DNA of 64,000 bases from Isurus oxyrinchus (Eukaryota), in NCBI GenBank assembly GCA_026770705.1, contig JANJGN010000024.1, positions 19,964,001 to 20,028,000 on the forward strand, given 5' to 3'. Below, piece after piece: positions 12,915 through 57,100 of the stretch (its first letter is position 1; each line of letters opens with the position of its first letter). Made by a program: the position numbers and the translations under genes. The notes under the pieces were generated by a model. That model saw nothing but the letters and a program-made list of their open reading frames with translations, made no database searches and was not told where the DNA came from.

Positions 12915-13900
12915 ATTAAATCGAGAGTTTATAAATAGGATTGTATGTAGCCAAGAATGGGTTACAGGCTGGAATCTATCGCAGGTTTCAAGCAGTTTAC
13001 ATGTAGCATAACAGATACCCAGGAGTAAATTACAGTCCAGAATCTAATCGAGAGGTTTGGGCAGTTTATGGGCAGAATTTTGCCCTTGTCGGGCGGGCTC
13101 GGTGGGGCGGACGGGTGGGGTTGGGAAGTTGACTGTCGTCGACGATCGGGGCCGGACCGTAATTTCACGCTGATGGGCCAATTGAGGCCTGCCAAGTGTG
13201 AAACACGTGCTGCAGCGCTCAGTACTGCCTGTGTGGGGAGGGGAGGAGGCCGAGCGGGGAGCTTCATGTATGCGTGGGGGTGTCACATGAGCAAGGGGGA
13301 CATGTTAGAAATCGGGATGAAATCTTTTTTTTTTACGTGACGGAATGAAACCTCATTCCGCCCGTGGATGAGGCTGGGCAAAAAAAATGCAAAGGCCGCT
13401 TGGTCTTTTCGCCTGCCCACCAGCTGTAAGGTTGGATGGGCAGTGAAAAATTTAAATCAGTTGGATTGTTAATGGTCTTAATAGGCCTTTTAATTGTCAG
13501 TGGGCACACAGCCAACTCACGCGTGCGCCCGCCGATCGAAATATTGCGCGAGTGCGCGATGACATCAGGACACTCGCCTGACGTCACCGCGCGTCACCTT
13601 ACGCTCGTTCGGGTCGGGCGCATGCCTGTCTGACAAATGAAAAGTTCTACCCTATGTGTAGAATAACAGGTACCCAAGGAGCAAGTCTGGAATCAGTGAT
13701 TTATATGTAAAATAACAGGTAGCCAGGAGAGAGTTACAATCTGGAATCCGATCGAGGGGTTCAGCGTGTTTATACTCAGGACAGAGTTACAGCCTGGAAA
13801 CTAATTGAAGCTTTTGGGTGGTTTATACAGAGAATAACAGTAATCCAAGAGAGTGTTACAGTCTGGAATCTGATCAATGGGTTTGGGTAATTTATGAAGG
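12915..13900 (+). repeat. Degenerate ~70-bp tandem satellite interrupted by a MITE
   Basis: Recurrent unit aataacagRtacccaggag..ttacagNctggaatctaatcgaggggtt. Confidence 0.7.
13070..13652 (-). mobile_element. Harbinger-type MITE
   Basis: TIRs GGGCAGAATTTT / AAAGTTCTACCC, exact TAT target duplication; related in reverse orientation to 11081-11743. Confidence 0.8.
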
Positions 13901-14009
13901 ATAGTTGGTGTAACATCACCAAAAGGGGAAATAAACCCATTGCCAGCCATCACAGGTACTGAGGCTTCTATCAATCTACAGGCATTGCCTGTTTGTTCCT
14001 GCTCCGTAG

Positions 14010-14176
14010 GTATCTGCTCAATCTTAGCTATTGGTGTCTCCACCCCAAATTCCTTGGTTGTGGAGGAGGGAATGGAGCTACGGCTGGACTGCAAGCTGGG
14101 ACATGCGGACACTCAATTACACAACATCAAGCTGGAATGGTCCTATACCCCTTACACTGGTGCTGAAGAGGACTTG
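14010..14176 (+). CDS. JAML: JAML-like coding exon 2 (first half of the Ig V domain)
   Basis: gctccgtAG acceptor; GICSILAIGVSTPNSLVVEEGMELRLDCKLGHADTQLHNIKLEWSYTPYTGAEEDL; donor GTGAGT; 167 nt, phase 1-0. Confidence 0.85.
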
Positions 14177-14414
14177 GTGAGTGTTGTGTTCCAGTGCTCT
14201 GTGTCAGATTCTGTGACTGCACTCTACCACCAGCTTCTCACCCTCTTGTCTTTAACTCAAGTGTGGTGTCTGCATGTTGTCATTTTAGGGCCACTGTAAT
14301 ATCGGCCAGAGTTTTGACTGTCTCTGGGGAATTTTTACACAAAAACTGTAGCAGGTGTGCACCAAAGCTCCAAATGATGGGAAATCACTGGGTGACAGCT
14401 CTGGTTTACCTCAA

Positions 14415-15065
14415 AAGGCTCTGAGAGTAAGTTTAGATTTAGAGGCTAGCAGCTAATGCAATAGGGAATCCCAAAGTCTTCTATAGGCATATAAACAGTA
14501 AGAGGATGTTAAAAAAGAGGTGTAAGGACCGAAAGAGGATTTACACATGGAGGCAGGAGACATGGCTAAGATATTAAGTGAATATTTCACATCTGGCTTG
14601 ACCAAGGAAGAAGACGCTACCCAGGCCATGGGGAAAAAGGGGGAAATTCAGCTACTATAAGCGTTTAAAATTGATAACAAGGAGGTACTGGATTGGTTGA
14701 GTGAACTTAAAGTTGACAAGGCACCAAGACCAGATAAGATGTATTCAAAGGTATTGGGAGAAGCAAGAGTGGAAAGTGCAGATGCATTGGCCATAATTTT
14801 TTAGTCTTCTTTAGACTCAGGGGTGGCGTCAGAAGACTGGAGAATTGCAAAAATTACACCCTTGTTCAATAAAGCTGGTAAGAATATGCCCAGCAGCTAT
14901 AGGCCTGTCAGTTTAACTTTGATGGTGGGGAAACTTCTAGAAACTATAATTTGGGACAGAATTAATAGTCACATGGACAAATGTGGGTTATTTAAGGAGA
15001 CCCAGCATGGGTTCCCAAGGAAAAATTGTGTTCAACTAACTTGCTGGAGTTTTTCAAAGAGGTAA
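14415..15065 (+). mobile_element. CR1 LINE ORF2 fragment (RT N-terminal region)
   Basis: EDWRIAKITPLFNK...YRPVSLTLMVGKLLE. Confidence 0.85.
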
Positions 15066-15410
15066 CCTGTTTCATCCCTGGGAGAGTTTGATGGGGACAG
15101 CATAGAGGGAGCTTTACTCTATATCTAACCCCGTGCTGTACCTGTCCTGGGAGTGTTTGATGGAGACAGATGTGGGAGCTTTACTCTGTATCTAACCCCG
15201 TGCTGTACCTGTCCTGGGAGTGTTTGATGGGGACAGCGTAGAGGGAGCTTTACTCTGTATCTAACCCCGTGCTGTACCTGTCCTGGGAGTGTTTGATGGG
15301 GACAGCGTAGAGGGAGCTTTACTCTGTATCTAACCCTGTTCTGTGCCTGTTCTGGGAGTGACTGATGGGGACAGTGTAGAGGGAGCTTTACTCTGTATCT
15401 AAGCCTGTTC
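15066..15410 (-). repeat. 69-bp tandem satellite, about 5 copies
   Basis: Reverse complement of the 37240 array unit; 23-aa period visible in the ORF track. Confidence 0.9.
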
Positions 15411-15448
15411 TTTCTCTTCAATTACATTCCTTCTTGATTCCAACACAG

Positions 15449-15665
15449 ATTTTTTTTCACTATCAAAACCTCAGTGTGGTCGTGCAGAATGGTACATTCT
15501 CCATGAGACTTCAGTGGATTGGTGACATCCGACAAAACAATGGTTCCATTCTCATAACTAAAGTGGAGTGCAGTGACAAAGGTTATTTCACTTGTGATTT
15601 GCGGATCCCCAGGTTATCCAGTAAAATCTTTACAAGCAGAATTGATCTAAAAGTCTTGTGCGCAG
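15449..15665 (+). CDS. JAML: JAML-like coding exon 3 (second half of the Ig V domain)
   Basis: IFFHYQNLSVVVQNGTFSMRLQWIGDIRQNNGSILITKVECSDKGYFTCDLRIPRLSSKIFTSRIDLKVLCA; DxGxFxC motif; cAG...G|GTAATG; 217 nt, phase 0-1. Confidence 0.88.
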
Positions 15666-15689
15666 GTAATGAACTAAGTTGCTGTACCT

Positions 15690-15945
15690 CAATACATTGG
15701 GAGTGAATGGGAAGGAATTTGAGCCTTTGGGATTCAAAACTCTGGGAGTGAACGAGAAAGGAATTTGTCTATTAGGATTGTATGCACTGGGAATGAATGG
15801 GAAGGTGTTTGGTCCATTGGGATTCAGTATTCCAGGAGTGAATGAGAAAAGGTTTCATCCATTGGGATTGCATGCACTGGGCATAAATGAGAAAGGGCTG
15901 ATCCACTGGGATTCAATACTCTGGGAATGAATTGGAAAGGGTTTA
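15690..15945 (+). repeat. Degenerate 45-bp minisatellite, about 5.5 copies
   Basis: Unit approximately ctgggagtgaatgRgaaRggNtttgNtccattgggattNNatNcN. Confidence 0.75.
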
Positions 15946-16204
15946 TGTCATGTGTGCATTATGTAGAGTTTAACTCAATGTTGTGAGTAAGCTAGGATTA
16001 AGCGGTAACTATGTAAGACTTTTCTACTCACCTCTTGTTTGCCATACCCCATAAATCAAATTAATGGATGAAATATTCTGCACAGCATTCCCCATGTTCT
16101 CATGCATGTAGCTAATGGGTGGGGCCTTCAATAAAGAGAGAGCAATCACAAAATCAATCTTTGTATTAATGAGACTGCCAAGCATCCAGAAACCTAATTG
16201 AAAT

Positions 16205-16590
16205 AAGAAAGAATTTACATTTATATAACTCTATTACATCCTTAAGACATACCAAGATGCTTTTCAATCAATGAATTCCTTTCAAGTGCATTTAATGATG
16301 TTATATAGATAAGCATAGCAGTCAACTTTCACACAAAATACCACAAACAACAATGAGACCAATTAATCTGGTTCGGTGGTGTTGGTTGGGAAATAAACCT
16401 TGATCAGGACACTTCGACCTTCTTTGGATAATATTGTTGGCTATTAAACATTTACCTCAATAACCAGGTTTGGCATCTCATTCAAAAGATGGCATCTTTG
16501 AGTGTGCAGCATTCTTTAAGTGTTGCATTGATATGTCGGCCTAAATTCTGTGCTTAAATCTGGGAGCAGGGATTTAATTGACTGTCGTTG
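16205..16590 (-). mobile_element. Deu-domain SINE, old copy
   Basis: Diverged reverse complement of the family. Confidence 0.55.
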
Positions 16591-16720
16591 GTGAGATTGC
16601 TACCGAGCCATGAAAGACTTGTTTCTTTTGTGAAATTGCTGCTTTTTTGGGTGTTGGGAGGTGGGGGATGGGGTGTGGTGAGGCAGAGATTTTGTATCTG
16701 AGCATTTCTATTCCCTTCAG

Positions 16721-16889
16721 GTTCCAAAGGTACAAGATCTATCAGGCATCCAGGGTTAGCAGAAGCAGTTCCAAAGAATATTATCATATATACAACAGTG
16801 GGGATTTTCAGCTTCTTTGGTGCACTGTCTATTATCCTTGTAAGTGTATGGAAGAAATGTTCAATAAACACAGCACCAAGGAGTCAAAG
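16721..16889 (+). CDS. JAML: JAML-like coding exon 4 (stalk and transmembrane helix)
   Basis: ttcccttcAG; GSKGTRSIRHPGLAEAVPKN-IIIYTTVGIFSFFGALSIILVSVW-KKCSINTAPRSQ; AG|GTAATA; phase 1-2. Confidence 0.85.
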
Positions 16890-22705: not shown

Positions 22706-23567
22706 TGTTCTGTGTTTTGTCCATTTCTCTAGTTCCAGATGGTGGTGTTAAGGGGATACCACTTCAATGAAAAAACTTGTATCAAATTTGTTTCTATTTT
22801 GCTTAGAAGCTGGGGATGAAGTTCAATTTTTATCATGAACTCAAATGTGTTTCAGTGATACTTTCCAATCCGGTTTTTGTGCCGTTGAGTACCTGTAAAC
22901 AAACAAAATGTTTGCCATCACTCATGAAGAATATGTCCCTTTAATGCAGTTTGACGGTGTAGTTTTGAATTCTGTTTGTTCTGTGTACTAAATCTCATAG
23001 AGGAAGTAATCACATCAGATACAAAAACAGAAAATGCTGGAAATACTTGGCAAATCTCGCAGCATCTATGGCAAGGGTGGGGAACCTTTCTCTTATCACA
23101 GGCCTTGATTGGTAAGGGGATCAAAGGTTATGGGGAGAAGGCAGGAAAATGGGGTTGAGAAACTTATCAGCCATGACTGAATGGCGGAGCAGACTCGATG
23201 GGCCGAATGGCCTAATTTCTGCTCCTATGTCCTATGGTTTTATTCACGCATGGACAAAATTAGTCATGGGCCACACACACCTAAAAATCAACTTAATTTA
23301 GTTACTTTAGAGCGAACACAGAAATGTTCTACTCACCCACTGTTTTAATGAGATGGCTGAATTTGAACATTATGATGTTAAGTATTATTATAGTAATTTA
23401 GCTGACGCTTTTATCCAAAGCAAATTCGTAACAATGATGGTAAATGTTATTTTGAAGGCATTACTATCATAGGTCTACATTTTTAGAAATCTTGCTGCGG
23501 CCAAATGAAATTGAGCAATGAGGCAGATCCGACCCATTGGCCATAGATTCCCCAACCCTGGTCTATG

Positions 23568-26549: not shown

Positions 26550-26917
26550 AGCATGGATTGAAAGTTAGTTGATGGATAAAAAGTGGGATAAGTTGATGTT
26601 CCATTGACTGGAGAAGGCGTGGGACAATTTGGGATACCCTTGCACCCTTGTTGAGTACAGATGATTTGGAATTTGGAATAGGAACCATGATGTTGAGCAA
26701 TGCAAAAATTGGAAGGTTTCAAGAAGTAAGGAGGATACTAAAAGACACCAGTGAAATGGGCAGGCAGGTGGCAGATGCAGTTTTATTTTAAGAGGTAAAA
26801 CATTCTGGCAGCCAACGAAAAGATAATGAAGGGTGTGTACACATGAACAGAGAGGGGCCCAAGAATTCAACAATATAATTACCTTAAGGTGTGAGTGCTG
26901 TAGATAAATTTTAGTAT

Positions 26918-27465
26918 TGCTGAAAAAAGGGACAAGCTGTTGAAGCTATTCAGCTTGCACTCATCAGCACAGGTGCAAGAATGCCAAATTTCAAAGGGAG
27001 CAACAATTTATACTGCTTGAGAAAAGGGTGTTGATTGGCTAGCAAGTTGACTCTAATTGGTCAAAGAGTTGCCATGGACAACGCACCAGGGAACTATTGC
27101 CCCCCATATTTCTGTTTAAGTTAAAAAAGGTGCAATGCCTGGACTTATTCCTTTTGCCTGCAGATGACAGATCCCTGTGAATGAATACATGTAACTTCTA
27201 GCAAGTATAAGTGAGCTACATTGTGAGCCTGACTGATAACCTTAAATTGGTTGTTAGTGTAATTATTGACACACTCAGGATTGTTCAGCAAGTGATGTCC
27301 AATTGTGGAATCACATCTAATGTTAGACATTGTGTTCTGAGATTTGCAAGTATGGGTTGGCTAAATTTGGTTAGTATTCTGCCTATTGGGAACAGCTGAA
27401 GGGAAGAGCTGTTTGATACGATCCACCAGTCATTCAGACTTGTGGCCCACGTACCTGTACAGCAG
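26918..27465 (-). mobile_element. Penelope-like element family B (GIY-YIG C-terminus plus terminal repeat with a decayed hammerhead)
   Basis: YVGHKSE*LVDRIKQ...STIGHHLLNNPEC...FKVIS...LLEVTCI...ICRQKE; gtgCTGATGAgtgcaagctGAAtagcttc near 26940-26972. Confidence 0.8.
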
Positions 27466-30599: not shown

Positions 30600-31090
30600 T
30601 GTGGTTAATATTTTTACCCCCCACCCCCGCCACTCCTCCTTCCCCCCCCCTCAACCCACCCCCCGACCCCCAAGTCGCAGCATATTCATTTCTCACTAAT
30701 GATACTCATCCCAGACCGCTCCTCCAAAGCACAGAATGAGCCCCTTTCCATTCCAGTATTCGCAGTTCCAGCCATATTAAACCTCGCTCAGTCCGCCTTG
30801 CCAGCCCTGGGAGAGTTCTGTACCTCCCTTCCTCATCGACACCTCCTTCCTGCCTTTTTCCCGGGGAAATTCGCAATGAAACTTCATGTCAGACCGGTTC
30901 TTCCTCGCCCACATTCCGCCTTGCTCGGGCTGATGCTCCTGTCCAGCGGCTGGGGTAAGTTGCATTTTTTTTTCGCCAGATTTTTCGTTTGAAGGAAAAC
31001 AAAGGTTTGGTGGGGGGAGGGAGAGAAAGAGAGAGAGAGAGAGGGGGGCGGGGGGCGAGGCTGAATCAGGATGAACCTGCCAAAACGCAG
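30600..31090 (+). promoter_or_regulatory. CpG-enriched promoter/5' region of SCN2B
   Basis: C-rich boxes (ccccgcc) at 30617-30670 and raised CpG around exon 1. Confidence 0.5.
30876..30954 (+). CDS. SCN2B: Sodium channel beta-2 subunit exon 1 (signal peptide MKLHVRPVLPRPHSALLGLMLLSSGW)
   Basis: LPRP plus a hydrophobic core as in the mammalian leader; G|GTAAGT, phase 1. Confidence 0.85.
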
Positions 31091-31346
31091 AGCTTGCCAC
31101 ATTTTTTGTTCATTTTACAGAGAAAAATAAAGAAAAGACCTGATCTCATATTGGATTACCAGTTATTGAATGTGTGAAGGACCCTGCTGTATAAATTGGA
31201 ATTTCTAACCAGCTTCATATTGTCTGTTCCCACAATATTTATGTTATTTTTTTGTTTTACACAGACTGATATTTGTCAAGACAGATTTTGTGGACTTCGT
31301 GTCCTTTCATTGATGTGAACCAACTCACGCAGATTGTTTATTTTTT

Positions 31347-31348
31347 AT

Positions 31349-31384
<36 letters not shown>
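31347..31384. repeat. (TA)n(CA)n microsatellite
   Basis: Read directly. Confidence 0.9.
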
Positions 31385-32982
31385 TCTTACAGGGTGAAAT
31401 GGAGTGCTTGCTCTCTCCCAGGCTGCTTACTGGGTGTGTCAAAATGTCCTCTTCACCAGATGTATTTTACCCTTGTCACAAATCTTCACACGTCTTCCTC
31501 AGGGAAACGTACATTGTGCTGCAGCCAGCTGGTGTTCAAAGGAATCCCCTAGTTCTTATTGTTTGTTTTCCCTCAATTAATATTCTCTTAACTCAATAGA
31601 ATTCTCAATGGGGTAATTTAAAAAAAAAGAATTCCTATCGGCGAAAATCTGAAATTAAAATGTGAAAATGCTAGAAACACACCCAAGAACTAGTCAATGT
31701 CTGCAGAGAGAAGGAGAGAGGAAAAAGACGAGTTAATGTATCAGACTGAGAGCCTTCCTTAGAATTGGTCCAGAGGAGAAAGGCCTTGTGATATAAACAA
31801 GGAAGAGGGGCAACCAAGGCAAGATTTCTAGAGGTAACGCTGCATTTGGCAGCCTGTAAAGAGCCTCACTATCCTTGCCAATCTAGCTTGCTCCATTATT
31901 TTGGATGGTGGCTGTTCTCCTGTGGAAGGATCACACCTGATCCACCCCAGCGATCGGAAACTGATGTAGAGCTCCATGGGGAAGGTTTGAAAACACCATG
32001 GCATTGAAAGTATACAGTATCTGTGGCCCAAGTGAAAATCTGTCAATATATTGGGCCTTGCTAGAGGGAGTGAGAGTGGGAGCAGAAATATCACAAATCT
32101 AGCAGCCACATGGAGTATGATCAAAGAATGAGAAACATAGGAGAATGGAGACCAAAAACACTAATCTGATATTTGTATTATACTGAATGGTTATCATAGA
32201 ATCTTACAGCACAGAAGAAGGCCATTCAACCCATCTCATCTATGCTGGCTCTTTGAAAGAACTATTCAATTACTTCAACTCTCCTGCTCTTTTCACATAG
32301 CCCTGATTTCTTTTTCTTTTCAAGTATCTATGCAATCCCCATTTGAAAGCTGCTGTTAAAACTGTTCACCACCTTTTCAGACAGCACGTTCCAAATGACA
32401 AGTCCCTTCATAAAATAGTTATCCTCATCTCTTCTCTAGTTATTTCACTAATTACCATAAATCTGGTCACCGACCCAGTGGAAACAGTGTCTCAGTATTT
32501 ACCCTATTAAAACCTCTCTTCACCTTGAACACCCCAATTATCCCTATCTCTGTAATCACCTCCAGCACCACAACCCTTTGAGATCTCTGTGCTTCCCCAG
32601 TTCTGACCTATTGCACACACCAGTTTTCATCGCTCCAACTTTGGTGTCTGTGCCTTCAGTTCTGGGTGTTAAACTCTGGAATTCACTCCTTGAACCTTTC
32701 TGCCTCTCTACCACATTTCCTTCCTTTAAGACACTGATCAGTTAGTTAGTCTACAAAATTACCCACTGTGATTTACCCCCAACAAATATCACCCAGTGAC
32801 TTGACTAAATGAACCCAAATCAGCCTACATGGTCTTATAAGTGTGTTAAACATTAAAGTCTAAATTCTGAAGCAATATAAAAATGTAGATATAAATAATA
32901 GATCTTTAACAATCCTATGTGAAAAATCTGGCTCCATAACAACATGATAATCTAGTTACGCTGAATATCATTCATTCTCACA

Positions 32983-33410
32983 TGTCAGTCTAGTAGCACT
33001 CTCTTGCCTCTGAGTCAGAAGATTGTGGGTTCAAGTCCCACTCCAGAGACTTGACCACATAATCCAGGCTGATGCTCCACTGTGATACTGAGGGAGTGCT
33101 GCAGTGTTAGAGGTGCCATCGTTTGAATGAAATATTAAACAGTGGCCCCGTCTGCCCTTCAGGTGAATGTAAAGATCCCATTGAACTATTTTGAAGAAGA
33201 GCAGGGGCGTTCTCCCCACTGTCTTGGCCATTATTTATCTCTCAATGAACACCAGTAAAATAGATTATCAGGTCATTATCACATTGCTCTGTGCTTGCTG
33301 TGTGCAAATTGGCTACCATTCACCACAACAGTAATTGGACTTCAAATGTACTTTATTGGCAATGAAGCACTTTGGGACATCCTGAGGCTGTGAAAGACAC
33401 TATATAAATA
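32983..33410 (+). mobile_element. Deu-domain SINE
   Basis: B box ggttcaagtcc, core gagggagtgctgcagtgttagaggtgcc. Confidence 0.75.
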
Positions 33411-33874
33411 CAGAATCCCAGAAGTTAATACTAACCCCATCTGATGGACTGGATGAGTAGTTGCAACTCTGAATTATGTGGCTACAATTCCTGATACACT
33501 GAGTTTGAAATGGACATGAGTTACATTTAAGGTTGAATAATCTCCATTGTGGGAATGTCATCTTCACAAGGAGCTCAGCTGTTCAAGAAAAAGGCCCACC
33601 ACCACTTGCTATGGGCAATAAATGCTGATCAAGTTTAATATTTTAAAAGAGGATCTAAATAAAAAGTTACAACAATATTGTACATTGACTACAATCCATA
33701 TCACAAATTTTAATCATTCAATAATCCAATGAGAAAATGAATCCAAGTTGCTATTTTCAGTAGAGCATATTAGCTTTTGTATTAATTATGGGAGTAGAAT
33801 ATTTTCTCAATTGCAGTTCTGATTGGTAAATCTTTCAAGAACGCAGAAAACGCAGAATAAAAATTAGGCATTTA

Positions 33875-34259
33875 AATAGTGGCTTGGTAGTACAGAGCTT
33901 GAATCAGGCTGAAAAAAAGAGACATGCTGTCAAAGCTTTTCATCTTGGACTCATCAGGCCAAATGTAGGAATGTCAAATTTCAAACAATCACAACAATGT
34001 ATGCTGCAAGAGAAAAGGGTGCTGATTGGTTGGCAAGTCGTCATGGATTGGCCAAAGCATTGCCACGGAGAAAGCAACAGGGAACTATAAGCTCCCTATA
34101 TTCCTAATTAGGCCAATCACTGTTGACTTGCCAACCAATCAGCACCCTTTTCTCCTGAGGTATAAATTGTTATGATAATTTGAAATTTGGCATTCTTGTG
34201 TTTGCCCTGATGAGTGCAAGATGAAATGCTTCGACAACATGTCTCTTTTCAGCAAATCC
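33875..34259. mobile_element. Non-coding fold-back derivative of Penelope family B with a hammerhead motif in each arm
   Basis: Arms about 33908-34052 and 34111-34253 are inverted copies; 14-bp direct repeat aaattaggcattta at 33861-74 and 34260-73. Confidence 0.8.
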
Positions 34260-35489
34260 AAATTAGGCATTTAGCGATCAATCACAACTCTTTCCACAGT
34301 TCAAACGGGTCAATATTAGTCCTTCACTCCCTTCCTGGGGGTAACCTGATCTATCGATATCTCTCTAACCCTCAATAACTCCCTTCTCAGAACTTAACCT
34401 GATCCATTGATATCTCTGTAACGCTCAGCCAATGATGATCCATTTCCTTTCTGATGTTATCCCTCTGACCCATAATTTCTCTGCCAGTCTGTTGCACACA
34501 CTCACCACCCCATGAGGGGATTGAACCTGCTCTAATCTTTTTCACTGACACCATGCTGCTCGGGTCACTTACAACAGAGGTCGGAAATTGTGACGTTCTT
34601 CAACTCTACACCAGTATCCTTGTTGATTGAGCTACTGAATGACAGTATACCTCAGGGAAAACCTGTGGCACAGTTTCTTGCATCTAGCAACAACAATTTG
34701 CATTTATATAGCCTCTAGTAAAACATCACAGGAGTTTATTCAATGTTATTGACACCAAACTAAAGGTGAAGATGTTAGGAATGTTGGTCAAAGCAGTAGA
34801 TTTTAAGCTTCTTGAAAGAGCAGAGAGATGGAAAGGTGTAGGGAGGGTATTCCAGAGCTTAAGATCCAGGCAGCTGAAATCATGGTCATCAACAAAAATT
34901 GGATCTGCACAAGAGGCCAGAGTTGAAGGAAAACAGATATCTTGGAGAGTTATGGGGCTAGAGGAAGTTACAGAGAAAGAGAGGTCATGGAGGGATTTCA
35001 ACACATGGATGAGAAGTTTAAACTTGAAGTATTTTTGAGGCAGTGTAGGTCGGCACTTTACTCTGTATCCAACCCCTTTGGAATTGTTTGATTGGCTAAT
35101 GTGGCAGAGTTGGGGCAGCAACAATTGATCTCGGCACTTCTGCATTAATGAAGGTGAAAAGTCAACCCTGGATCCACTGAGCCCTCTCCTACTGAAAGGC
35201 TTTGCTTCAAGATGGGATCTAGCTTGGTGATACCCCAACATTGGAAGTTCCTGTTGCCACTCATTATCCATTCTCAGACATGAGTGTGGCTATTTGAATG
35301 AGGCACTGGAAGGGGGATATTTCTTGTGGCATGTTGCCCTATGAAAAGCTGGACTCGAGAAGAGGAGATAAACTTGTCAGTGTAGATGTTTTAGACAAGG
35401 TGCTAGACCTCATTTCATCATTCGCAAAAATTAGTAACAACAAAAGAATTGAGTGATTGTTTACCCAGTTACAGTGACACATGGGGCCC

Positions 35490-35800
35490 AGCTGTTTTCT
35501 TGATTTGTTCCTGGTAATGTGGGTGCTGCTGGCAGGGCCAGCATTTGTCACCCACCCTTAATTCCACATTGCTGAAGTTCACATAAACCAGACCAAGTAA
35601 GGACAGCAGATTTCCTTCTGGAGATTAGTGAACCACATGGATATTTATGGCTATAGTTTCATGACTATTATTGAGACTACCTTTCAATTCCAGATTTAAA
35701 AAAAAAATTTATTGAATTTAAATTCCACCAGTTGCCATGGTGGGATTTGAGCCTGTGTCCCAAGAACATTACCCTGGATCATGGGTTTACTAGCCCAGTG
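35490..35800 (-). mobile_element. SINE family B
   Basis: Reverse complement of the family. Confidence 0.65.
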
Positions 35801-35839
35801 ACTCCACTCTCTCCTCCCTAAACTCTCACTCCCTCCATC

Positions 35840-36190
35840 CAAGATGCACGAATTGCAGGAATTCATCAAGGTTCCTTAGGCAGCACCTTCCAAACCCACG
35901 ATCACTACCACCTAGAAGGACAAGGGCAGCGGACACATGGGAACACCACCACCTGGAAGTTCCCCTCCAAGTCACTCACCATCCTGACTTGGAAATATAT
36001 CACCGTTCCTTCACTGTCACAGGGTCAAAATCCTGGAACTCCCTTCCTAACAGCACTGTGGGTGTACCTACACCACATGTACTGCAGCGGTTCAGGAAGG
36101 GGGCTCACCACCACCTTCTCAAAGGCAGTTAGGGATGGGCAACAAATGCTGTTCTAAGCCACACATCCCATGAATGAATAACAAAAAAAA
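35840..36190 (+). mobile_element. CR1/L2-clade LINE 3' end that shares its tail with SINE family B
   Basis: SWNSLPNSTV-type terminus followed by ttagggatgggcaacaaatgctg...catcccatgaatgaat. Confidence 0.7.
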
Positions 36191-37237
36191 ACCCCAACCA
36201 CACTCTCACACCCTCCCTTGCTCCCTCACCCACACTCCTTCACTCCCTTCCCAGGCTCACTTCATCGCACAACCACTTACCCACCCTTGCTCCATCTCCA
36301 ACACTTGGTCACTCCTTCCCCCAGGCTCACTCCCTTCATTTTATACCACCATTCATTTCATCCTTAAGTCTCATGCATTCTACCTCCTTCACTCCACTCA
36401 CACTCCCTCACTCCCTCTTTGCCCCCCAGCTGAAGTTAGTTAAAGTAAAGCTCCCTCAACGTTTGCCCTGTGACACACTTCCATTGAAGACACGGTAAGG
36501 TTAGATATAGAATAAAACTCCATCTGCACTATCCAATAGAATGATAGAATAGAACAGCACAGAAGGAGGTCATTCAACCAGTCATGACAAAGAACAATCT
36601 AGTTAGTCCCAATGCCCTTTCTTTCCTCATATCCTTGCAATGTTTATTCCCCTTCAGTTTATCCAATTCCCTTTTTGAAGGCTACTATTAAATCCACACA
36701 TATAAATCTATATATTAATCTAAATCTATAAATCTAAATCTATATCCACCATTCTATTGGACAGTGTCTACTTGGGAATTGAGAGTTTTAAATTTAAAGG
36801 ATAGATTTTCATTGGATGAAAACAGATTTAAATCCCCATCACACCTTCCCAGAGAAGAGTTAGTGGTCTTTAAAATGATGAAAGGATTGATAAGATCAAC
36901 ATACAGAAGATATTTCCACCTGTGGGGGAGATCAGAACTATGGGCCATCAATATACAACAGTCACAAATCAATCTAAGAGGAAATTCAGGAGAAACTTCT
37001 TTAGCCAGAGTTTGATGAGAATGTGGATCTCGCTACCACAGGGAGTGATGAGATGAATAGTATGAGATACATTTAAGAGGAATCTCGACAAACAGTTGAG
37101 GGAGAAAAGAACAGAAGGATATGCTGATTGTGTTAGATGAAGCAGGATGGAAGGAGGCTGCTCTGGAGCAGAAACACCGGCTTGAGCAGCGCCCTAACCC
37201 TGGGCCATTTCTGTGCTTTGAATATATTGTAATATAT

Positions 37238-38414
37238 GTTAGATACAGAGTAAAGCTCCCTCAAAGTTCATCAAACATCCTCAGGACAGGTACAGCATGG
37301 GATTAGATACAAAGTAAAGCTCCATCTACACAGTCCCCCTCAAACACTCCCAGGACAGGTACAGCACAGGGTTAGATACAGATTAAATCTCCCTCTACAC
37401 TGTACCATTCAAACATCCCAGGAGAGGTATAGCACAGAGTTAGATACAGAGTAAAGCTCCCTCTACACTGTCCCCATTAAACACTCCCAGGGCAGGTACA
37501 GCACGGGGTTAGATATAAAGTAAAGCTCCCCCTACACTGTCCCCATCAAACACTTTCACGGCAGAAACAGCACCGAGTTAGATACAGAGTAAAGCTCCCT
37601 CTACACTGTCCCCATTAAACACTCCCAGGGCAGGTATAGCACAGAGTTAGATATAGAGTAAAGCTCCCTCTACACTGTCTCCATCAAACACTCCCAGGGC
37701 AGGTACAGCACGGGGTTAGATACAGATTAAATCTCCCTCTGCACTGTACCATTCAAACACTCCCAGGACAGGTATAGCACGGAGTTAGAGACAGAGTAAA
37801 GCTCCGTCTACACTGTCCCCCTCAAACACTCTCAGGACAGATACAGCATGGAGTTAGATACAGAGTAAAGCTCCCTCTACACTGTCCCCATCAAGCACTC
37901 CCAGGGCAGGTACAGCACGGAGTTAGACACAGAGTAAAGCTCCCTCTACACTGTCCCCATCAAACACTCCCAGGCAGGTATAGCATGGAGTTAGATACAG
38001 AGTAAAGCTCCCTCTACACTGTCCCCATCAAACGCTCCCAGGACAAGTACAACATGGGGTTAGATACAGAGTAAAGCTCCCTCTACACTATCCCCATTAA
38101 ACACTCCCAGGGCAGGTACAACATGGGGTTAGACAAAGAGTAAAGCTCCCTCTACACTGTCCTCGTTAAACACTCTCAGGGCATGTACAGCATGGGGTTA
38201 GATACCAAGTAAAGCTTCCTCTACACTGTCCCCATCAAACACTCCCAGGGCAGGTACAGCACGGAGTTAGACACAGAGTAAAGCTCCCTCTACACTGTCC
38301 CCATCAAACATTCCTAGGGCAGGTACAGCACAGGATTAAACACAGAGTAAAGCTCCCTCTACACTGTCCCCATCAAACACTCCCAGGACAGGTACAGCAC
38401 GGGGTTAGATACAG
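37238..38414 (+). repeat. 69-bp tandem satellite, about 17 copies
   Basis: Unit gagtaaagctccctctacactgtccccatcaaacactcccaggRcaggtacagcacggRgttagataca. Confidence 0.95.
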
Positions 38415-40296
38415 TCAGCCTAGATTTTATACTTAAGCCTCTGGAATGCGTCTCTCTGTCAGGGAATTCTGTGAAACATATGAATGAGCAAACGCCAGTG
38501 GGAGACCTTGCATGCCGATTGTCGATCAATAGATTACTGCAACAAGACTAAATGATTTGTTAACCCTTTCTTCGATATTCCTCTGCTTACCTTAGCCGAG
38601 TAACTTCTCCTGTCATTTCATTTAACCAGATAGGCAAGTGAGAAATTAATTCTTTCAACTTGCTTTAGTTTCTCATTGAGGCTGAAATGGAGCAGGCAGG
38701 AGAAAGAGCAAGATGAAGTCAGCTGGCTTTCAGTGTAGATTTCTGGGAAGAAGGATTTCTGATTCACCATTTTTAACTCATTCCTTTTGGTCCAGTCACC
38801 ACAGATTGAGGAGAGCGATGTGATTTTATACTTTCATTCAGACATGTTGAGCTGGCTTCCTCTTTGCCCATTGACTCTTGGGATCTGAGGTGTTGAAAGT
38901 GTCCGTGTGCTTTCAAGGAAAATAAATACAATTGGTTCTAACCCTAGGCCAGCTCCATGCTGCCTGACGTGGTTAGACCATTATCCGAGGTCTTTTAGGG
39001 CACCAACTTTCCTCCATGGGCTAGCCAAAAGATTTTTATACCAGGGCGGTGTGATGAGAATTCATAGCTCCAATACTCAGCTGATTAAGGACGTTCTTAC
39101 TTCTTAACAGTAACCTTCACAGATGGCGTGATTCCAGTTCATCCAAAGTCTTGTAATCTTTTACTATCTTTAGGGTAACTGAGCATCGAGGAATGCAGGA
39201 ACCTCTTTCTAACTTCTCCGGGAGGAAGAAAAGATCCTTTCTGAAGCTCTGTTTATTGGAGTGTTGCAAATTAACCAGCACACGCCGACAGACAGGACGC
39301 GATTCCTTTTCATGTTTTTTTTTGGAATGGAATCCTGCTCCTTTGCAGTATCCCCTGGGATAGGCCCAACTTAGTATTATTCAATAACAGTCTTGCAGAG
39401 TCAGCACTCGAGCCCAGCTGCATCGCCCCCTGATTGATGCAGTGTTTGGAAATATAGATTTTTTTTTTACAGATCCTTAAAGCACAGCAATATGCAAATA
39501 AAGCTGCAGAGGGTAAAGGCACAACTGCATGATGACAGCAGCACTGAAGCTGGTGCAGGTTGGGCAGTTGAAGAGAAGGATGTACCATCGAAGCAGCTTA
39601 TCAATGGGGAGTTCTGTTATCAGGACCCTGCTGAAGGAGGGAGGTCTTGTCAACAGGACCCTTTTGAACAAGTTAGCCTTGCTAAAACTCTCCCTCCACT
39701 TTTAAAGTTGCTTCTTAAAAGCTACCTCGACAGCTAAGCTTTAGTTCACTTGTCCTAATAATTTCCTTATGCAGCTCAGTTTTGTTCGATAATCGCTCCT
39801 GTGAAGCAACCTTAGAATGTTTTACTACATTAAAGGCACAAGTTGTTTTCCTGCCATGGGGACTACCTTTAAACCGGGGGTGTCAGCTTGGTGACTTTTT
39901 GTAAAGAGGGAGGTTTCACCCTCGGTCTCCCCTGTATCGAGGAGGGGCAGGTGGATACGATCATCCCTGACAGTGTTGTTTAGAACACATATTAAGAGGG
40001 TAAGGCATGTCTTTGTTGGTCTCTATTCTCCTTAACGGTCCAGGAGATGTGTGTCTTGGTGGCCTGGGCTTTAGAGTCAGATTTTAAGACTAGGATTAAT
40101 TAAGATACTTACATTTTTACACCTCCAAATTTGAAAGGACATCCACCACCTCATCATTAATTAGCTTGGATCTCAAATTTCTTTCTCAGGACTGAGAAAA
40201 GTGTCTTTATTTTACAGTTGTGGGACAGGCCATCTGACATTTTCAATGCTTTGGTTCCTGACAGTGTCTTTCCCACACTTTCCCCAATCTTTTTAG

Positions 40297-40463
40297 TCCA
40301 CCTTGGTTCCAGTATGGAAGTTATGGTCTCACCGTACATCATCAAGCTGAATGGTACATCAGCCAAACTGACCTGCACCTTCAACTCTTGCTATGATGTC
40401 AATGAAAAGCGTTTCTCTTTAAATTGGACCTATTTTGAATGTGACAACTGCACTGAAGATCTG
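40297..40463 (+). CDS. SCN2B: SCN2B exon 2
   Basis: VHLGSSMEVMVSPYIIKLNGTSAKLTCTFNSCYDVNEKRFSLNWTYFECDNCTEDL; ttttAG...GTAAGT; 167 nt. Confidence 0.95.
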
Positions 40464-45868: not shown

Positions 45869-47080
45869 ATGGAGCCTGGTGAAATAGCTGTGTGCCTGAT
45901 GGCCTACAGAATGCGGAAATGACGGAGGAGAGAGCGACTGAGGCTCCTAGCTGTGCAGAGGCAGGAGCAGCAACCTCAGGAGGAAGGGGACAGCTGGGGC
46001 TCCTGCACACGCCACCGAAGAGCCACAGTGAGCCGTTGCTATTCAGTGCCTAGTTCCTCCCAGGGTCCATAGAGGCCACCTTTCATTCCTGTGATGACTG
46101 AGAACCAGTGTCTCAGAGACATGTCCAGGGAACTGGTCACTCACATCTGCCACCTGCTGCAGGATTTGGCACAATGGGGACATGGAGGGCATCCACTGCC
46201 AGTGGCTGTGAAAGTGAAAGCGGCGCTCAATTTCTATGCAGTGGCTCCTTTCACGACTCCACAGGTGACCTCAGTGGGATCTCTCGATCCTTCATCCACA
46301 AATGCATCGATGAGGCCATCTTCGGGAGTGCACACAACTTTGTACATTTCTCCCAGGACCAGGACAGCCAGGATGCAAGAGTAATTGGGTTCGCCCAGAT
46401 CTTGGGTTTCCCACAGGTGCAGGGTGCAATAGATTGCACTCATGTGGTGCTCAGATCTCTGTCACAATACACGATGGACTACATCAACTGCAAGGACTTC
46501 AGTTCGCAGAATGTGCAGCTGGTGTGCAACCACCAGAAACACATCCTGCAGGGGTATGCACAGTTTCCAGGAAGTGTGCACGACTCCTACATCCTCAGTC
46601 AGTCTTCCAGTGTCCATAGAAGCTGCAGGGATGGCTTGTTGGGGACAAGGGCTACCCAAAGAGGCTGTGGCTGATGACACCCGGCGGTGGCCTCAGACTG
46701 CAGCAGAGCGACTCTATAACGAGGCTCATGCTGCAACTCGCAACTAGGTGGAGCAGACCATCGGGATGCTGAAGATGAGGTTCCGGTGCCTGGACTGGTC
46801 TGGTGGAGCCCTGCAATACAGTCCACAGAAGGCGTCACACATCATCATCGTCTGCTGTGCCCTTTACAACCTGGCGGTGCAATGGAGAGAGAAGCTGGCT
46901 GAGGAGGAGATGGAGGAGCTGCATAACTCATCTGATGAGGAGGACACCGATGAGGGTGAGGGGATCCTTGGAGGCGGCAATGACAGGAATGAGGCCCTCA
47001 CACTGGCTAAATGAGGCAGGCATGCACGGGAGGACCTCATAGCTGCCAGATTTGTGGAGGATGATGATGACATGCAGTGA
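45869..47080 (+). pseudogene. Harbinger DDE transposase (HARBI1-like), with stops and frameshifts
   Basis: LPVAVKVKAALNFYA, GFPQVQGAIDCTHV, FPGSVHDSYIL, GDKGYP, YNEAHAATRN*VEQTIGMLKMRFRCL and CCALYNL across shifting frames. Confidence 0.9.
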
Positions 47081-47814
47081 GGTGACCCCAAAGCTCCTCA
47101 CATCACATCTGTGAATGTTTGACTCCAATCTGGCTTATGGCAGTGTGAATACCCTCTTGTGAAAATGCTCCTGTCATGGAGATGCAGTGGAGGCCCTAAT
47201 AGTCGCTCAATTGCAGGAGGAGAATGACGACATGCATTGAGGACACCCCATAAATCTTCACATAGCCTCAGAATGTCTGACTCCTGTCTGGCCAAGGGCA
47301 GCTTGCTTGCGCTCCGCGATCAGGGTCATATCACAGAGACGGAGCCATGAAACTTTAGAAGCATCTGATGCTTTGTCTGCCTTCAGCACCTGAACCCTTT
47401 AGGAGTTGGAGCACAGATTCAGTGGTCACAGCTGCTGAAGATATAGGAGCCACCCCCTCCATAAACGTGCAGAGAGCACACCGAGAGAATGTGAGAACTC
47501 TGTGGCGCCTGCCCACCACATTCTGACAGCAATGTCAAGCACCACTGAGGTACAGACAACAGTAATGTGTTCAGGGAGTGAGGCCGGACTATCACTTTGG
47601 TCTGAAGGCTGCACAAAGCACAGGGAAGAGGCCCTGGACTGAGACACCTGCCTTTATCTTGTGCAGAAAGGTTTCACATCTGAGTGATAAGGACACTGCT
47701 CATCAGAACAAGGAGCTAGAGGCAGGGAGACATTCTTGGGAGTTTATTGACAATAGCGAACAGTATGTACAAGTGATTAACATTCATGCCCGGGCTGTGC
47801 AACGAATTCTCCTT

Positions 47815-49507
47815 AACTTTCCTAGCCCTGCTGCTACGTCTTGGTGCTCCCTGCACATCCACAGTGGAGATGGGGGCAGCCTGCTGACTGCAACACCCTG
47901 TCTGTGATGACTTTGGCAGGTGTTCTCTGGAGGGCCAAGACTTGGAGGTCCCAGCCTGCTTTCGGGATCCTGCTGTGTGGCAGTGGCACCTTCCTTGGCC
48001 TGTGGAGCTGCAGCTGCTGAGGTCATAGGAAGAGGGGAGTCGGATGGGTCAGACACTCTTGGAGTCACCTGGATTGATGGGCCCAGAGTTTGTACCTGAG
48101 GATCCTCCTCCCTGTGGGTGCCCAGGGGCTGCAGGCTGACTCCTTAAGGAGCAGGGGTAGCTGGAATGAGATCGAGCTTCCCTAAACCCCTCTCGCGTAC
48201 ACACTATTGGAGACCAACTATGGTATCAGTGATGGAGTTAAGCCCATGCAGCAGCACAGGAGCGACATCCTGGACCAAGGTCTCCATGATGGCTGCCATC
48301 CTGCCAGTGTTGACCATTGCAATGCTGGCGCTATCATCTCAGTCTGAAGGTGGACGGATTCCTCCATCGTGCCCTGCAATCTGAGGAGCGCAGCGGACAT
48401 CCCTTCCTGATATTCCCGAGCTTGCCTTTGCAGCTCCAGCATCTGTAAGATGACCGAGTCCAGAGGCTCATCATCTGATTCGGACTCAGTAAATTTCTGG
48501 CCTCTAGCAGTCCTCGAGTGCCAGACACCTGGGGAAGTCCCTGCTTCTGCCTACTGTGGATCAGACACTGTGATGTGCTCACCAGATTGTGATCCTGGGG
48601 CTACTCTAAAGCTAGGTCCCACCAAGGTGTATGTGTCTGCACTGGTGGAGGGTGTGAGCGAGTGCTGTGACGGGACTTTAGGGAGGGTGCCTTCAGATTC
48701 CTCTTCAGCAGTTTCTTTGGGGCTTGATTGTAGGCCCTGGGTCATGGACTCTGTCAGCTGTTTCCCAGATGTGCCTGGGAAGCAAGGAGAGGTAATTAGT
48801 GCATGGCAGTGGCCTATGAAACAGGATCCATCTTTCACAGCATGGTTGTCTGATGGATATTGCACTGCTGGACCCTCACTTGGTTGAGCAGCGCCGACCT
48901 CACTGTCAGCTCAGGAACAATCCAGATCCTCGCCGGCCAGCTGGATGGCTCTGTTTTTAAAGTCCGTGAGGACCTTGATTTTGGGCATTCCTCCACCAGC
49001 CTGCACTCTCTCTGTCTTGTTGTGTGCCAGCTTGTCCTGCATAACTAGAGATGGAGAAAGTGTGAGCAGGACGCCTGCCGGGCCAGATGACAAGTATGCC
49101 TGGCCTGTGTGGGTGGTGAGTGGTCCCATGGACGGGATGAGGACAATGACAGTGAGTGTGAGAGAGTGAATGGTGATGTCCCTTGAACTGGCAGTGAGTG
49201 AAGGCCTTGTGGATGTGTGATGGATTTATGAGTGTGTGAGTTGAGTGATAAGATGAGTGAATTACCTTGACGGAGCAGAGGGGATCATTCATCCTCTTGC
49301 AACACTGGGTGGCTGTCCTCTTTTGCAGAGCGTTGGCACTGACCACCGCTGCCAGCACCTCCCAAGCCATGTTAATGCTGTTGCTGCCCATCCTGCAGCC
49401 AGAGCGGGGGTAGAGGACATCCCAGCAGGTCTCCACGGCATCCAAAATCATTTGAGGGACACATCGCTGAACCTGGGGGCTGCGATCGTCTTCAGTTTCT
49501 GGCCATG
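47815..49507 (-). pseudogene. Harbinger Myb/SANT-like DNA-binding protein, 3 exons, disrupted
   Basis: AAPRFSDVSL..ILDAVE..WEVLAAVVS..RTATQCCKRMND | DKLAHNKTERVQAGGG | low complexity plus coiled coil MLELQRQAREYQE; GT-AG boundaries near 49265/49040 and 48880/48775. Confidence 0.8.
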
Positions 49508-50419
49508 TCTTCCGTGCAACAGTGGTGAGCTGGAAACAATGAAACATGGCGCCTGGCATGATGCAGCAGTGCGGTGATGGTGGGCGGGCGAATGAGAGCC
49601 CGCTTCACCATGGAAATGGCATGTTTTCCGGGAATGCATAAATAATGAGGCGGGTCTGGGATGACATGATGTGAAAAACTCCCATCGCAGCCGGTGGGTA
49701 AAATGTTGTTTTAGTGTAAATTTGGGAAAATTCTGCCCCAAGTCCCTTTCATCTATCACTCCCATGTTCATTGACCTGCACTGGTTCCTGGTCTGGTAAT
49801 ACCCTCAGTTTAAAATTCTCATCCTTGTTTTTATATCTCCCCCTATTTCTGCAACCTCCTCTATCCCTGAGATCTCTCCACCCCTCCAGTTCTGGACTTT
49901 TTCATTCCTGATTTCCTTCACTCCACCATTGGTGGCTGTGCCTTTAGCTGCCTAGGCCCTAAAGTCTGGAATTCCCTCCCTAAACATCTCTACCTTCTCC
50001 TCCTTCTTTAGGTCATTGCTTAAAATCTACCTCTTTGACCAAGCTTTTGATCATCTGTCCTAATATCTCCTTATGTGCCTTGGTATCAAATTCTGAGTGA
50101 CAGTTTTCTTCCTCAGAGAGCAGTGGAGGCTCAAGGGTGAGTTAGACAGATTTTTGATAGACAAGAGAGTCAAGGGTCATGGGGACAGACAGGAAAGTGG
50201 AGTTGAGACCACAACCAGATCAGCCATGATCTTAATGAATGGTGGAGCAGGTTCAAATGGCCAAATGGCCTACTACTGCTCCCAAGTCCTATGTTCCTAT
50301 GAAGCATTTTGGGACATTTTACTATGCTAAGTGCAAGGTGACACGTGGCCCCAACTTCAATATTTACTCTCTTTTTCGCTGCACACAGCCTTTTCATTTC
50401 AAAGTGTGGTACCGTTGAA

Positions 50420-51830
50420 AACTGAAGTAGGGAAGTTATGCTTCAGTTATACAGGGCATTGGTGAGACAACATCTGAAGTACTGTGTACAGTATTGGTCT
50501 CCTTATTTAAGGATGGTTGTAAATGCATTAGAAGCAGTTCAGAGAAGGTTCACCAGATTAATACCTGGAATTAGATGGTTGTCTAATGAGGAAAGGTTGC
50601 ACAGGCTGGGCTTGTATCCACTGGAGTTTAGAAGAGTGAGGGGCAATTTGATTGAAACATATAAGATCCTGAGGGTCTTGATAGGGTGGATGTGGAGAGG
50701 ATGCTTCCTCTTATGGGAGAATCCAGAACTACGGGCCACTGTTTAAAAACAAGGGATCCCCATTTAGGACCAGCAAAGTATGAGGTAATGCATTTGGGAA
50801 GGACAAACGAAGCAAGAGAATTCTCAATAAACGGGAAGTTATCGAGAGGGGTTGAGAAAGCTAGAGACCTTGAAGTGCATGTCCACAGGTCCTTGAAGGT
50901 GGCAGAACAGGTGGATAAGGTGGTCAAGAAAGCATATGGAATGCTTTCCTTTATTGGAAGAGGTATTGAATTCAAAAGTAGGGATGTAATGATAGAACTA
51001 TATAAAATGCTGGTTAGGCCACAGTTGGAACTTTGTGTACAGTTCTGGTCACCACATTATAGGAAGGACATAATTGCTCTGAAGAGAGTGCAGAGGAGAT
51101 TTGCAAGAATGTTGCCAGGGCTTGAAAATTACAGCTATGAGGAGAGATTGGATAGGCTGTGGTTGTTTTCCTTAGAACACAGGAGGCTAAGGAGTGACCT
51201 AATTGAGGCGTACAAAATTATGAGTTGCCTAGATAGGGTTGACAGGAAAGACTTGTTTCCCCAAGCTGAGGGGTCAATTAACAGGGGGCATAGATTTAAG
51301 ATGATTGGCAGAAGGGTTAGAGGGGATATTTTCACCCAGAGGGCGGTGGGCGTCTGGAATTCACTGCCTAAGTTGGTGGTTGAGGCTGAAACGCTCAACT
51401 CATTTAAAAGGTACCTGGGTCTGCACCTGAAGTGCTTTAACCTGCAAGGCTACAGACCTGGTGCTGGATAGTGGGATTAAAATGAGGGGCTAGTTTCTTT
51501 TTCATCTTTTTGGCTTGCACAGACATGATGGAGTGAATAGCTTCTTTCTGCACCATAATTTTTCCATGGTTCTATAGTTCTATGACAGAGATGAGGTGAA
51601 TTTTTTTCCTCTCAGAGGGTAGTGAGTCTTTGGAACTCTCTGCCTCAGAAGGCGGTGGAAAAGAGTCTTTGAATATTTTTAAGACAGAGCTAGATAGATT
51701 CTTGATCATTTGGGGGGTGGGGTAGGTGGGAATGTGGAGTTGAGGTTGCCATGGTCAGCCACGATCTCATTAAATGGTGGAGCAGGCTCGAGGGGCCAAG
51801 TGGCCTACTCCTGCTCCTAATTTGTATGTT
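50420..51830 (+). mobile_element. Nested CR1 LINEs: a younger copy (about 50770-51585) inside another CR1 tail
   Basis: YEVMHLGRTN...LVRPQLELCVQFWSPHYRKDI; host sequence ccatttagga|cagagatgagg is split by the insert. Confidence 0.85.
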
Positions 51831-56179: not shown

Positions 56180-57100
56180 TCCAAAGGTTAAATCACGAGG
56201 AGCGATTGCATAAACTAGGATTGTATTCCCTGGAATTTAGAAGATTAAGGGGTGATTTGATCAAAGTTCTCAAGATATGAAGTGGAGCAGTTAAGGCAGA
56301 TACTGAGAAATATAGAGGGAGTCTAGGGCTTGGGGGCACAGTCAAAAATTATTGCCGGACCGTTCAGCAATGCAGTTAGGAAACACTTCTACATGCAAAG
56401 GGTAGAAATTTGGAACTCACTTCAGAAAACAGCAATTGATGCAAAATCAATTGTTAATTTTAAATCTGAGATTTATAGAGTTTTGTTAACCTAAGGTATT
56501 AAGAGATATGGGCAAAGACGGGTAGATGGAGTTAGGTCACTGATCAGCCATGATCTCCCTGGATGGTGGGACAGATTCGAGGGACTGAATGGTCTCCTCC
56601 TGTTCCTATGTTCGAAATGAGAAGAGACAATTGTCACACGGTTAGTTTTAGTTAAAATGGGGTCTCAGCTCCTGACCCTGATGGCAATGAGCGACGTTCT
56701 TTAACTTCCAGTTAGAATTGTCAGTTCCATGTGGCCATTTTCCAGGAAGCTTTATCACATGACAGGGATAGGGAGAAACCATTCCCATCGGCAGAAAGAT
56801 TGAGAAGCAGAGGGCACAAATTTAAAATAATTGGCAAAAGAAGCAATGGCGACATGAGGAGAAACTTTTTAATGCAGAGAGTGGTTAAGGTCTGGAATGC
56901 GCTGCCTGAGAGTGTGGTGGAAGCAGGTTCAATTGAGGTATTCAGAAGGGAATTGGATTATTATCTGAAAAGGAAGAATATGCAGCGTTACAGGGAGAAG
57001 ACAGGGAAATGGCACTAAGTGCATTGCTTGTTCAAAGAGCCAGCGCAGACACAATGGGCCGAATTGCTCCCGTCTGTGCTGTAACAATTCCGTGATTCTG
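56180..57100 (+). mobile_element. CR1 3' fragments (56180-56612 and 56760-57100)
   Basis: SRGHKFKI...QRVVKVWNALP; the first copy resembles 53820-54245. Confidence 0.75.

Follow-up and report, generated by a model that had tools for sequence, protein, structure and literature searches.

The first intron of SCN2B in Isurus oxyrinchus very probably carries a single old insertion in which two 5'-clipped ends of an EN+ Penelope-like element lie head to head; the insertion was likely twin-primed, and its hammerheads are likely dead passengers. It was analysed in a window of 64,000 nucleotides, which is the whole stretch of DNA examined and to whose numbering the coordinates refer. The structure at 33861-34273 is real but ordinary, as decayed Penelope stubs of this kind are very numerous.

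Anatomy of the insertion and its surroundings

The first-pass annotation had described inverted arms of about 145 bp and a spacer of about 60 bp within a 14-bp direct repeat. The flanking repeat is exact (33861-33874 and 34260-34273), and the inverted arms were also found, their sizes being adjusted to 142 nt (33915-34056 and 34108-34249, 84% complementary) with a gap of 51 nt. Since the arms are only 84% alike, they are not an assembly mirror. Both are 3' ends of the same Penelope-like repeat facing outward. Family homology spans the whole element except about 11 nt, and the 'spacer' is not foreign DNA but mostly extra upstream sequence of the longer arm. The arms are unequal in that only the left one has a tail of 30 nt, the ends relative to the family being +30 on the left and +3 on the right (Table 1). 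In relatives, this tail belongs to a reading frame starting at an ATG inside the hammerhead core; in 8 of 90 copies the frame runs open through the tail, over 27 codons. The CCAAT, CCAAT and TATA-like motifs in each arm sit at the modal positions of the family, with the TATA-like box of the long arm (33875..34096, minus strand) mutated. A 10-bp palindrome is located at 34103-34112 within the central junction. Plus-strand RNA of the element is predicted to form one long hairpin (-205.7 kcal/mol, z -18), and none of 100 shuffled sequences folded as well. Immediately to the right of the element, a 33-nt direct repeat is present at 34342-34427 (88% alike, 53 nt apart).

Table 1. Features of the inverted insertion, its host gene and a related copy in the window
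Feature	Position	Strand	Basis
Separate single-arm 5'-truncated copy, same Penelope-like group	26917..27454	-	broken end of endonuclease frame and pLTR, degraded hammerhead core
SCN2B coding exon 1	30876..30954	+	called from phase and signal-peptide character
Left target site duplication, 14 bp	33861..33874	.	exact direct repeat
Penelope 'tail', 30 nt, left arm only	33875..33904	-	TSD-anchored end at +30; two end classes among 90 copies
Long arm, 5'-truncated pLTR of Penelope-like element, about 200 nt plus tail	33875..34096	-	
Minimal type I hammerhead motif, antisense to SCN2B	33927..33962	-	core 33957-33951 and stem III palindrome intact
Central junction, about 11-14 nt degenerate/filler sequence	34097..34112	.	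unique in the genome as searched
Short arm, 5'-truncated pLTR, about 150 nt, without tail, ends at +3	34111..34259	+	
Promoter-like motifs of pLTR: CCAAT (34113, 34135), TATAAA (34161)	34113..34166	+	predicted from sequence
Minimal type I hammerhead motif, sense in SCN2B pre-mRNA	34202..34237	+	core 34207-34213, GAAA 34223-34226 intact
Right target site duplication, 14 bp	34260..34273	.	exact direct repeat
SCN2B exon 2	40297..40463	+	match to solved sodium channel beta-2 chains

The proposed position in SCN2B intron 1 (30955-40296) is upheld. The translation of exon 2 (40311-40463) matches solved sodium channel beta-2 chains with an E value of 1e-17, and the element is placed in intron 1 because a signal-peptide-like exon at 30876-30954, a call that depends on phase and peptide character, joins exon 2 in phase. 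Contigs of public sequencing runs cross both outer junctions of the element in I. oxyrinchus and in a second organism; they cover the outer junctions, and none of those listed spans its centre, a gap that carries no weight as evidence. Among 24 public runs listed, none was found to hold the element as RNA, which says nothing about expression. There were no differences in a run of I. oxyrinchus, which may be the sample of the assembly itself, and 4-6 differences in about 340 letters in the second organism. Since the insertion is present in both, it predates their split.

An Rfam scan of the window gave five weak hits, with none to a hammerhead family. One of them, MIR169_8 (E 0.47), fell on the hairpin of the element and was put down to chance. 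Another site, 23388-23445 on the minus strand, matched the UnaL2 LINE 3' element with 37.6 bits, under the gathering score of 55, and is probably the tail of an L2 LINE or a SINE. Upstream of SCN2B, the frames at 13898-16883 (+) resemble exons of a membrane protein with an immunoglobulin V-set domain, which we take by synteny to be possibly JAML- or MPZL-like. Downstream, the frame at 46102-46747 (+), within 46073-49604, presumably represents a Harbinger-type transposase and that at 48957-49604 (-) its Myb/SANT-like partner, while 50426-51471 and 56716-57018 are assumed to be CR1-like LINE 3' fragments.

Similarity of the arms to the copy at 26917-27454 is 77%; a match to a Penelope copy near 26918 had been noted at first. 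The Penelope origin itself is corroborated by longer relatives, in which the arm sequence runs on into endonuclease and RT frames. Upstream of the arm, the 26917-27454 copy, L023 and L100 have the broken end of an endonuclease frame, and L094 has an RT frame with motifs including YVDD, which reached only E 0.021 with Pfam RVT_1, below the cut-off. The link from L094 and L100 to the arms of the element is made by the 26917 copy and by L023, with matches of 68-76%. A stretch of L100 was taken, by recognition and with no profile hit, to be GIY-YIG-like. Together with the RT/GIY-YIG frame in relatives, the inverted 5'-truncated neighbour, the one-sided tail and the hammerhead in the pLTR place the element among EN+ Penelope-like insertions. 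A Pfam search of the linker between RT and endonuclease in L094 gave no match, and CX2-5CxxC was absent from this open 112-aa linker, which is one copy of a sister subfamily. As described in PMC8557442, this motif in the RT-EN linker marks Neptune and Nematis. Assignment to the Neptune clade was therefore dropped, and the Penelope/Poseidon type is likely because the L094 linker has no such cysteine motif, a classification drawn from that one linker. L094 (G000:C1:192970992-192975522) is the longest relative seen and comprises RT, linker and the start of the endonuclease; about 1.2 kb of other sequence interrupts it, and an inverted tailed arm is present at its 5' end. Head-to-head pairs of about 0.8-1.3 kb with arms reaching into the endonuclease end were seen at L024 and L028 (G000:C3, C30), which are outside the counts given below.

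State of the hammerhead motifs

Two opposed hammerhead-like motifs had been reported, and both were found at their places and on their strands, 34202-34237 (+) and 33962-33927 (-). In both arms the core CUGANGA, GAAA and NUH are in type I order, which bears out the minimal type I layout. The palindromic stem III described for the minus arm is intact, and the plus motif is indeed sense within SCN2B pre-mRNA. Cleavage is predicted at 34232/34233 (UUC) in the plus motif and after the U at 33932 (UUU) in the minus motif. Stem I pair 2 is mismatched in both (34205 and 33959, respectively), so that neither has a continuous stem I beside the core, and on the plus arm the palindrome of stem III for the dimer fold is lost (34227). 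In the family motif the order is type I and stem III is palindromic, and it is at stem I pair 2 that both motifs of the element differ from it. Two CpG positions are mixed columns in the family motif and show ordinary decay. Among unselected partner arms, the core is intact in 11 of 33, core and palindrome in 4 of 33, and all features in 1 of 33. Retention of the core in both arms, as in the element, has a probability of about 0.11 for a pair, but the locus had been picked for this.

The opposed motifs cannot form a dimer in cis, because a transcript of either strand contains just one motif in the sense orientation. According to the fold prediction, the sense motif in the pre-mRNA pairs with the other arm with a mean probability of 0.86. 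Ribozyme activity in the element is judged unlikely from these models, because both motifs mismatch in stem I and the arms are predicted to pair in the pre-mRNA. Minimal hammerheads of Penelope-like elements are described as not cleaving as monomers and cleaving weakly as dimers (PMC4209133; review PMC6765202), and the motif of PAc, a Poseidon element of Anolis carolinensis, is reported to need the protein of the element (PMC11167929).

Compared with the metazoan minimal hammerheads in PMC4209133, the type I topology, the palindromic positions 15.2-16.2 and the location in the pLTR are shared, whereas a very short stem II of 2-3 pairs, a 4-nt palindromic insert in stem III and the stem I mismatch in both copies set the present motifs apart. 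The same paper describes dual minimal hammerheads on opposite strands, about 100-700 bp apart, in Schistosoma mansoni; the opposed pair in the element, about 250 bp apart, is similar. As in PAc, the hammerhead overlaps the ORF start, two end classes define the tail, and copies run past the cut site (PMC11167929). In the element, the ends are found about 25-60 nt beyond the cut site and no more than about 90 nt from the ATG, whereas PAc is reported to start 111-118 nt into the ORF (PMC11167929). Overlap of the pLTR with the ORF start is common to the family described here, PAc and Pen2a of Adineta vaga (PMC11167929, PMC3846280). With non-LTR retrozymes, the element shares being non-coding, hammerhead-bearing and derived from the ends of Penelope-like elements. 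Retrozymes are described as same-sense tandem repeats yielding circles, while in the element the pair is inverted and its junction unique (PMC7229834; bioRxiv 10.64898/2026.07.22.740005). Same-sense tandem hammerhead repeats are absent at the element, its motifs being on opposite strands.

Head-to-head copies in the genome and a one-off junction

A 31-nt core pattern had 1,574 exact matches in the genome and none with the control. The first 90 core matches on contig C1, a sample that mixes subfamilies, were inspected with 1.5 kb of upstream sequence for 30 and 4 kb for 60 of them. An inverted partner is present upstream in 43 of these 90 hammerhead-bearing copies, which makes the layout routine for the family. 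A direct neighbour was detected in two copies, and an inverted partner downstream, where a shorter stretch was covered, also in two of the 90. Because a locus with two arms has roughly double the chance of entering the sample, the fairer share of two-armed loci is about a third. The total length of the loci varies from 121 nt to 3.6 kb. Arm-to-arm identity is 84% at the element and ranges from 76 to 93% over 34 loci. L105, L108, L093 and L076 (G000:C1) are very short fold-backs of 121-179 nt, their arms beginning no more than about 30 nt from the hammerhead core; duplications of 11-12 bp are retained in three of them.

The ends of the 90 copies fall into two classes, long and short. One long and one short end were combined in 36 of 42 loci, against 20.7 expected if the ends were independent (p 9e-7), while five had two short ends and one had two long ends; with a stricter cut-off, the mixed combination was still obtained in 33 of 42 (p 5e-5). 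Flank duplication scores of at least 9 were reached by 18 of 42 loci versus 26 of 3,080 mismatched flank pairs, and target duplications of 9-14 bp are kept in 18 of the 42. Among loci anchored by such duplications, four of which came from the similarity search, exactly one end is located at +21 to +32 in 21 of 22. L051, whose left end is cut by the locus edge, was left out of the tail and duplication counts, and L009 was dropped as a duplicate of L008.

The layout as such is familiar. Inverted 5'-truncated copies with a one-sided tail of 30-40 bp and a target site duplication are described for EN+ Penelope-like elements (PMC8557442, PMC3846280), and variable inverted terminal repeats for Penelope of D. 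virilis (PMC2377424). Head-to-head inverted pLTRs, a one-sided tail of about 30 nt and a TSD are thus shared with A. vaga Pen2a/Pen2 and D. virilis Penelope, and a pLTR that holds the first ORF codons and promoter-like motifs is shared with complex EN+ insertions (PMC3846280, PMC8557442, PMC2377424). Unlike the insertions in A. vaga and D. virilis, both arms of the element are truncated within the pLTR, and therefore no coding region remains. Its target site duplication is 14 bp, compared with 8-10 bp in the A. vaga examples given in PMC3846280.

Two readings of the element had been offered at first, a one-off inverted truncation and a non-autonomous mini-element bearing ribozymes. The search for further copies with the same junction of arm and spacer and with duplications of their own returned none besides the element, two patterns being matched across the genome and the DNA searches being scored over 40 candidates each. 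A gapped junction pattern matched once in the 5-Gb genome, at the element itself, as did a 31-mer of the junction with up to three mismatches allowed. A 96-nt junction query gave single-arm hits of 88-98% and, elsewhere, junction-spanning hits of 74-80% among the best 40 of 292 candidates. When the genome was searched with the element, 85 matches were obtained in the best 40 of 6,636 candidates, the closest other fold-back among these being 79% alike. The 30 loci among the top matches included 14 distinct fold-backs, the element being one of them, and one duplicate with shared flanks. Alignment of 13 junctions, those of the element and its 12 closest look-alikes, revealed no two that coincide at the base level, and the arm that bears the tail is the longer one at some loci and the shorter one at others. 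The only identical junctions are those of L008 and L009 (G000:C263, C15), the same fold-back with near-identical flanks; since the flanks are shared too, this pair is a duplicated region (assembly duplicate or segmental duplication) and not a transposition. As far as the searches reach, the central junction appears to be unique. Copying of the junction filler from the target site was rejected as a rule, as at least 8 nt were shared in 1 of 34 loci versus 25 of 1,122 control pairs; an 8-mer is shared between filler and target site at the element's own locus.

With these results, the element is very probably a one-off Penelope stub. The other reading, a MITE- or retrozyme-like fold-back mini-element that carries ribozymes and is copied as a unit, is exceedingly improbable and is rejected because, as far as the searches reach, the central junction is unique. 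Many fold-backs of similar size, 14 distinct ones including the element among the top matches, and the arm lengths of L003, L007 and L017, which are within 8 nt of those of the element, would speak for such a family, but these loci had been chosen for their likeness to the query, their junctions all differ at the base level with varying tail polarity, the junction patterns match no other locus, and the sole identical pair is a duplicated region. Retrozymes moreover require same-sense tandem hammerheads, and those of the element are opposed. It is also very improbable, if slightly less so, that the stub has been co-opted, its sense arm serving as an intronic promoter or cleaving SCN2B pre-mRNA, or its hairpin affecting processing. 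The sense arm does retain CCAAT-CCAAT-TATA and the hammerhead core, a hypothetical transcript initiated downstream of the TATA box would avoid the long hairpin, and the insertion is common to a second organism. Against this, both motifs have bases discordant with the family in stem I, and the sense motif has one in its stem III palindrome as well, the divergence of the arms is typical, the second organism with its 4-6 letters in about 340 is too close to show constraint, and such minimal motifs are described as inert as monomers and weak as dimers (PMC4209133) or as protein-dependent (PMC11167929).

Origin of the inverted arms

In twin priming of L1, both target ends prime cDNA, leaving an inversion between target site duplications. 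There, the segment that is inverted is internal and non-overlapping, whereas in the element the 3' end has been copied twice. From target-primed reverse transcription we infer that 3' ends facing outward between a target duplication are the outcome expected if both 3' hydroxyls prime. For the stub, such twin priming is regarded as a reasonably probable origin. An RT-endonuclease, probably a dimer, would nick both strands about 14 bp apart, and both 3' ends of the staggered cut would each prime reverse transcription on the sense RNA of the element. Synthesis from one target end would begin at the distal RNA start site and include the 30-nt tail; from the other end it would begin at the proximal site and lack the tail. 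Both cDNAs would terminate prematurely, in this case at about 230 and 150 nt, and would be joined by end-joining repair; the inserted copy would then decay neutrally. The template RNA was apparently uncut at the hammerhead, because each arm extends beyond the predicted cut site, by 24-57 nt. As a speculation, the palindromic stem III of the hammerhead might hold two template RNAs together in the insertion complex.

PAc offers a biochemical parallel for several of these steps. It is reported to cut and extend both strands, to use two neighbouring internal start sites by which the tail is defined, to be a predicted dimer and to use uncut RNA (PMC11167929). In vitro, its start site is reported not to differ between the strands (PMC11167929); this lack of a strand difference does not by itself explain a one-sided tail and counts against the scheme.

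The published alternative is self-priming, proposed for inverted copies and argued from palindromes at the junctions (PMC3846280). The same one-off stub would then have obtained its second arm by snap-back, with cDNA or antisense RNA folding back and copying itself. For a tailed first strand, snap-back requires the tail to be on the longer arm, while the version with an antisense template offers no prediction to set against the counts. At the element, the tail is on the longer arm and the junction has a palindrome of 10 bp, which is also compatible with self-priming; partner arms mostly belong to one subfamily, and 16 of 27 loci have their tail on the longer arm. A tailed first strand that snaps back cannot, however, yield a shorter arm bearing the tail, the arrangement seen in 6 of 18 unbiased loci and in 11 of 27 in all (16:11, longer to shorter). 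This arm-length test was applied to 34 of 51 loci with a placeable junction, 17 being dropped by the junction filter, and leaves out L010, L051, L078, L094, L117 and L119; before the filter, with mis-placed junctions included, the tallies were 18:13 and 17:14. Palindromes of at least 10 bp were detected at only 2 of 34 junctions, one of them that of the element. Arms are seldom each other's best match, with a median rank of 7 of 49 and a best match in 7 of 50 arms. Since the tail is often on the shorter arm and long junction palindromes are rare, the counts, which come from old copies that are 7-24% diverged, favour priming from both cut target ends over self-priming, and the latter is considered a rather doubtful origin of the stub.

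Whether Penelope-like elements insert by asymmetric twin priming, with a dimeric RT-endonuclease, a staggered cut of 9-14 bp and each end starting at a different RNA site, is evenly balanced in our assessment. A literature search among openly available papers found none pairing Penelope with twin priming in that sense. PMC11167929 speaks of 'additional steps yet to be validated', and the inverted pLTR with its one-sided tail is described in PMC3846280 and PMC11167929 with its origin left open. The head-to-head layout has already been published (PMC3846280, PMC8557442, PMC4209133). The one durable point is the asymmetry at the population level, which favours twin priming.

The locus itself matters little, and it is the class counts that bear on the open question of how inverted pLTRs are formed. 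Asymmetric twin priming, if true, would account for a head-to-head pair with a one-sided tail, whichever arm is longer. The near-strict pairing of long and short ends, its independence from arm length and the duplications of 9-14 bp yield a prediction that can be put to the test in the reconstituted PAc reaction, and the thousands of stubs in this genome would be a data set to settle the origin of inverted pLTRs against self-priming.
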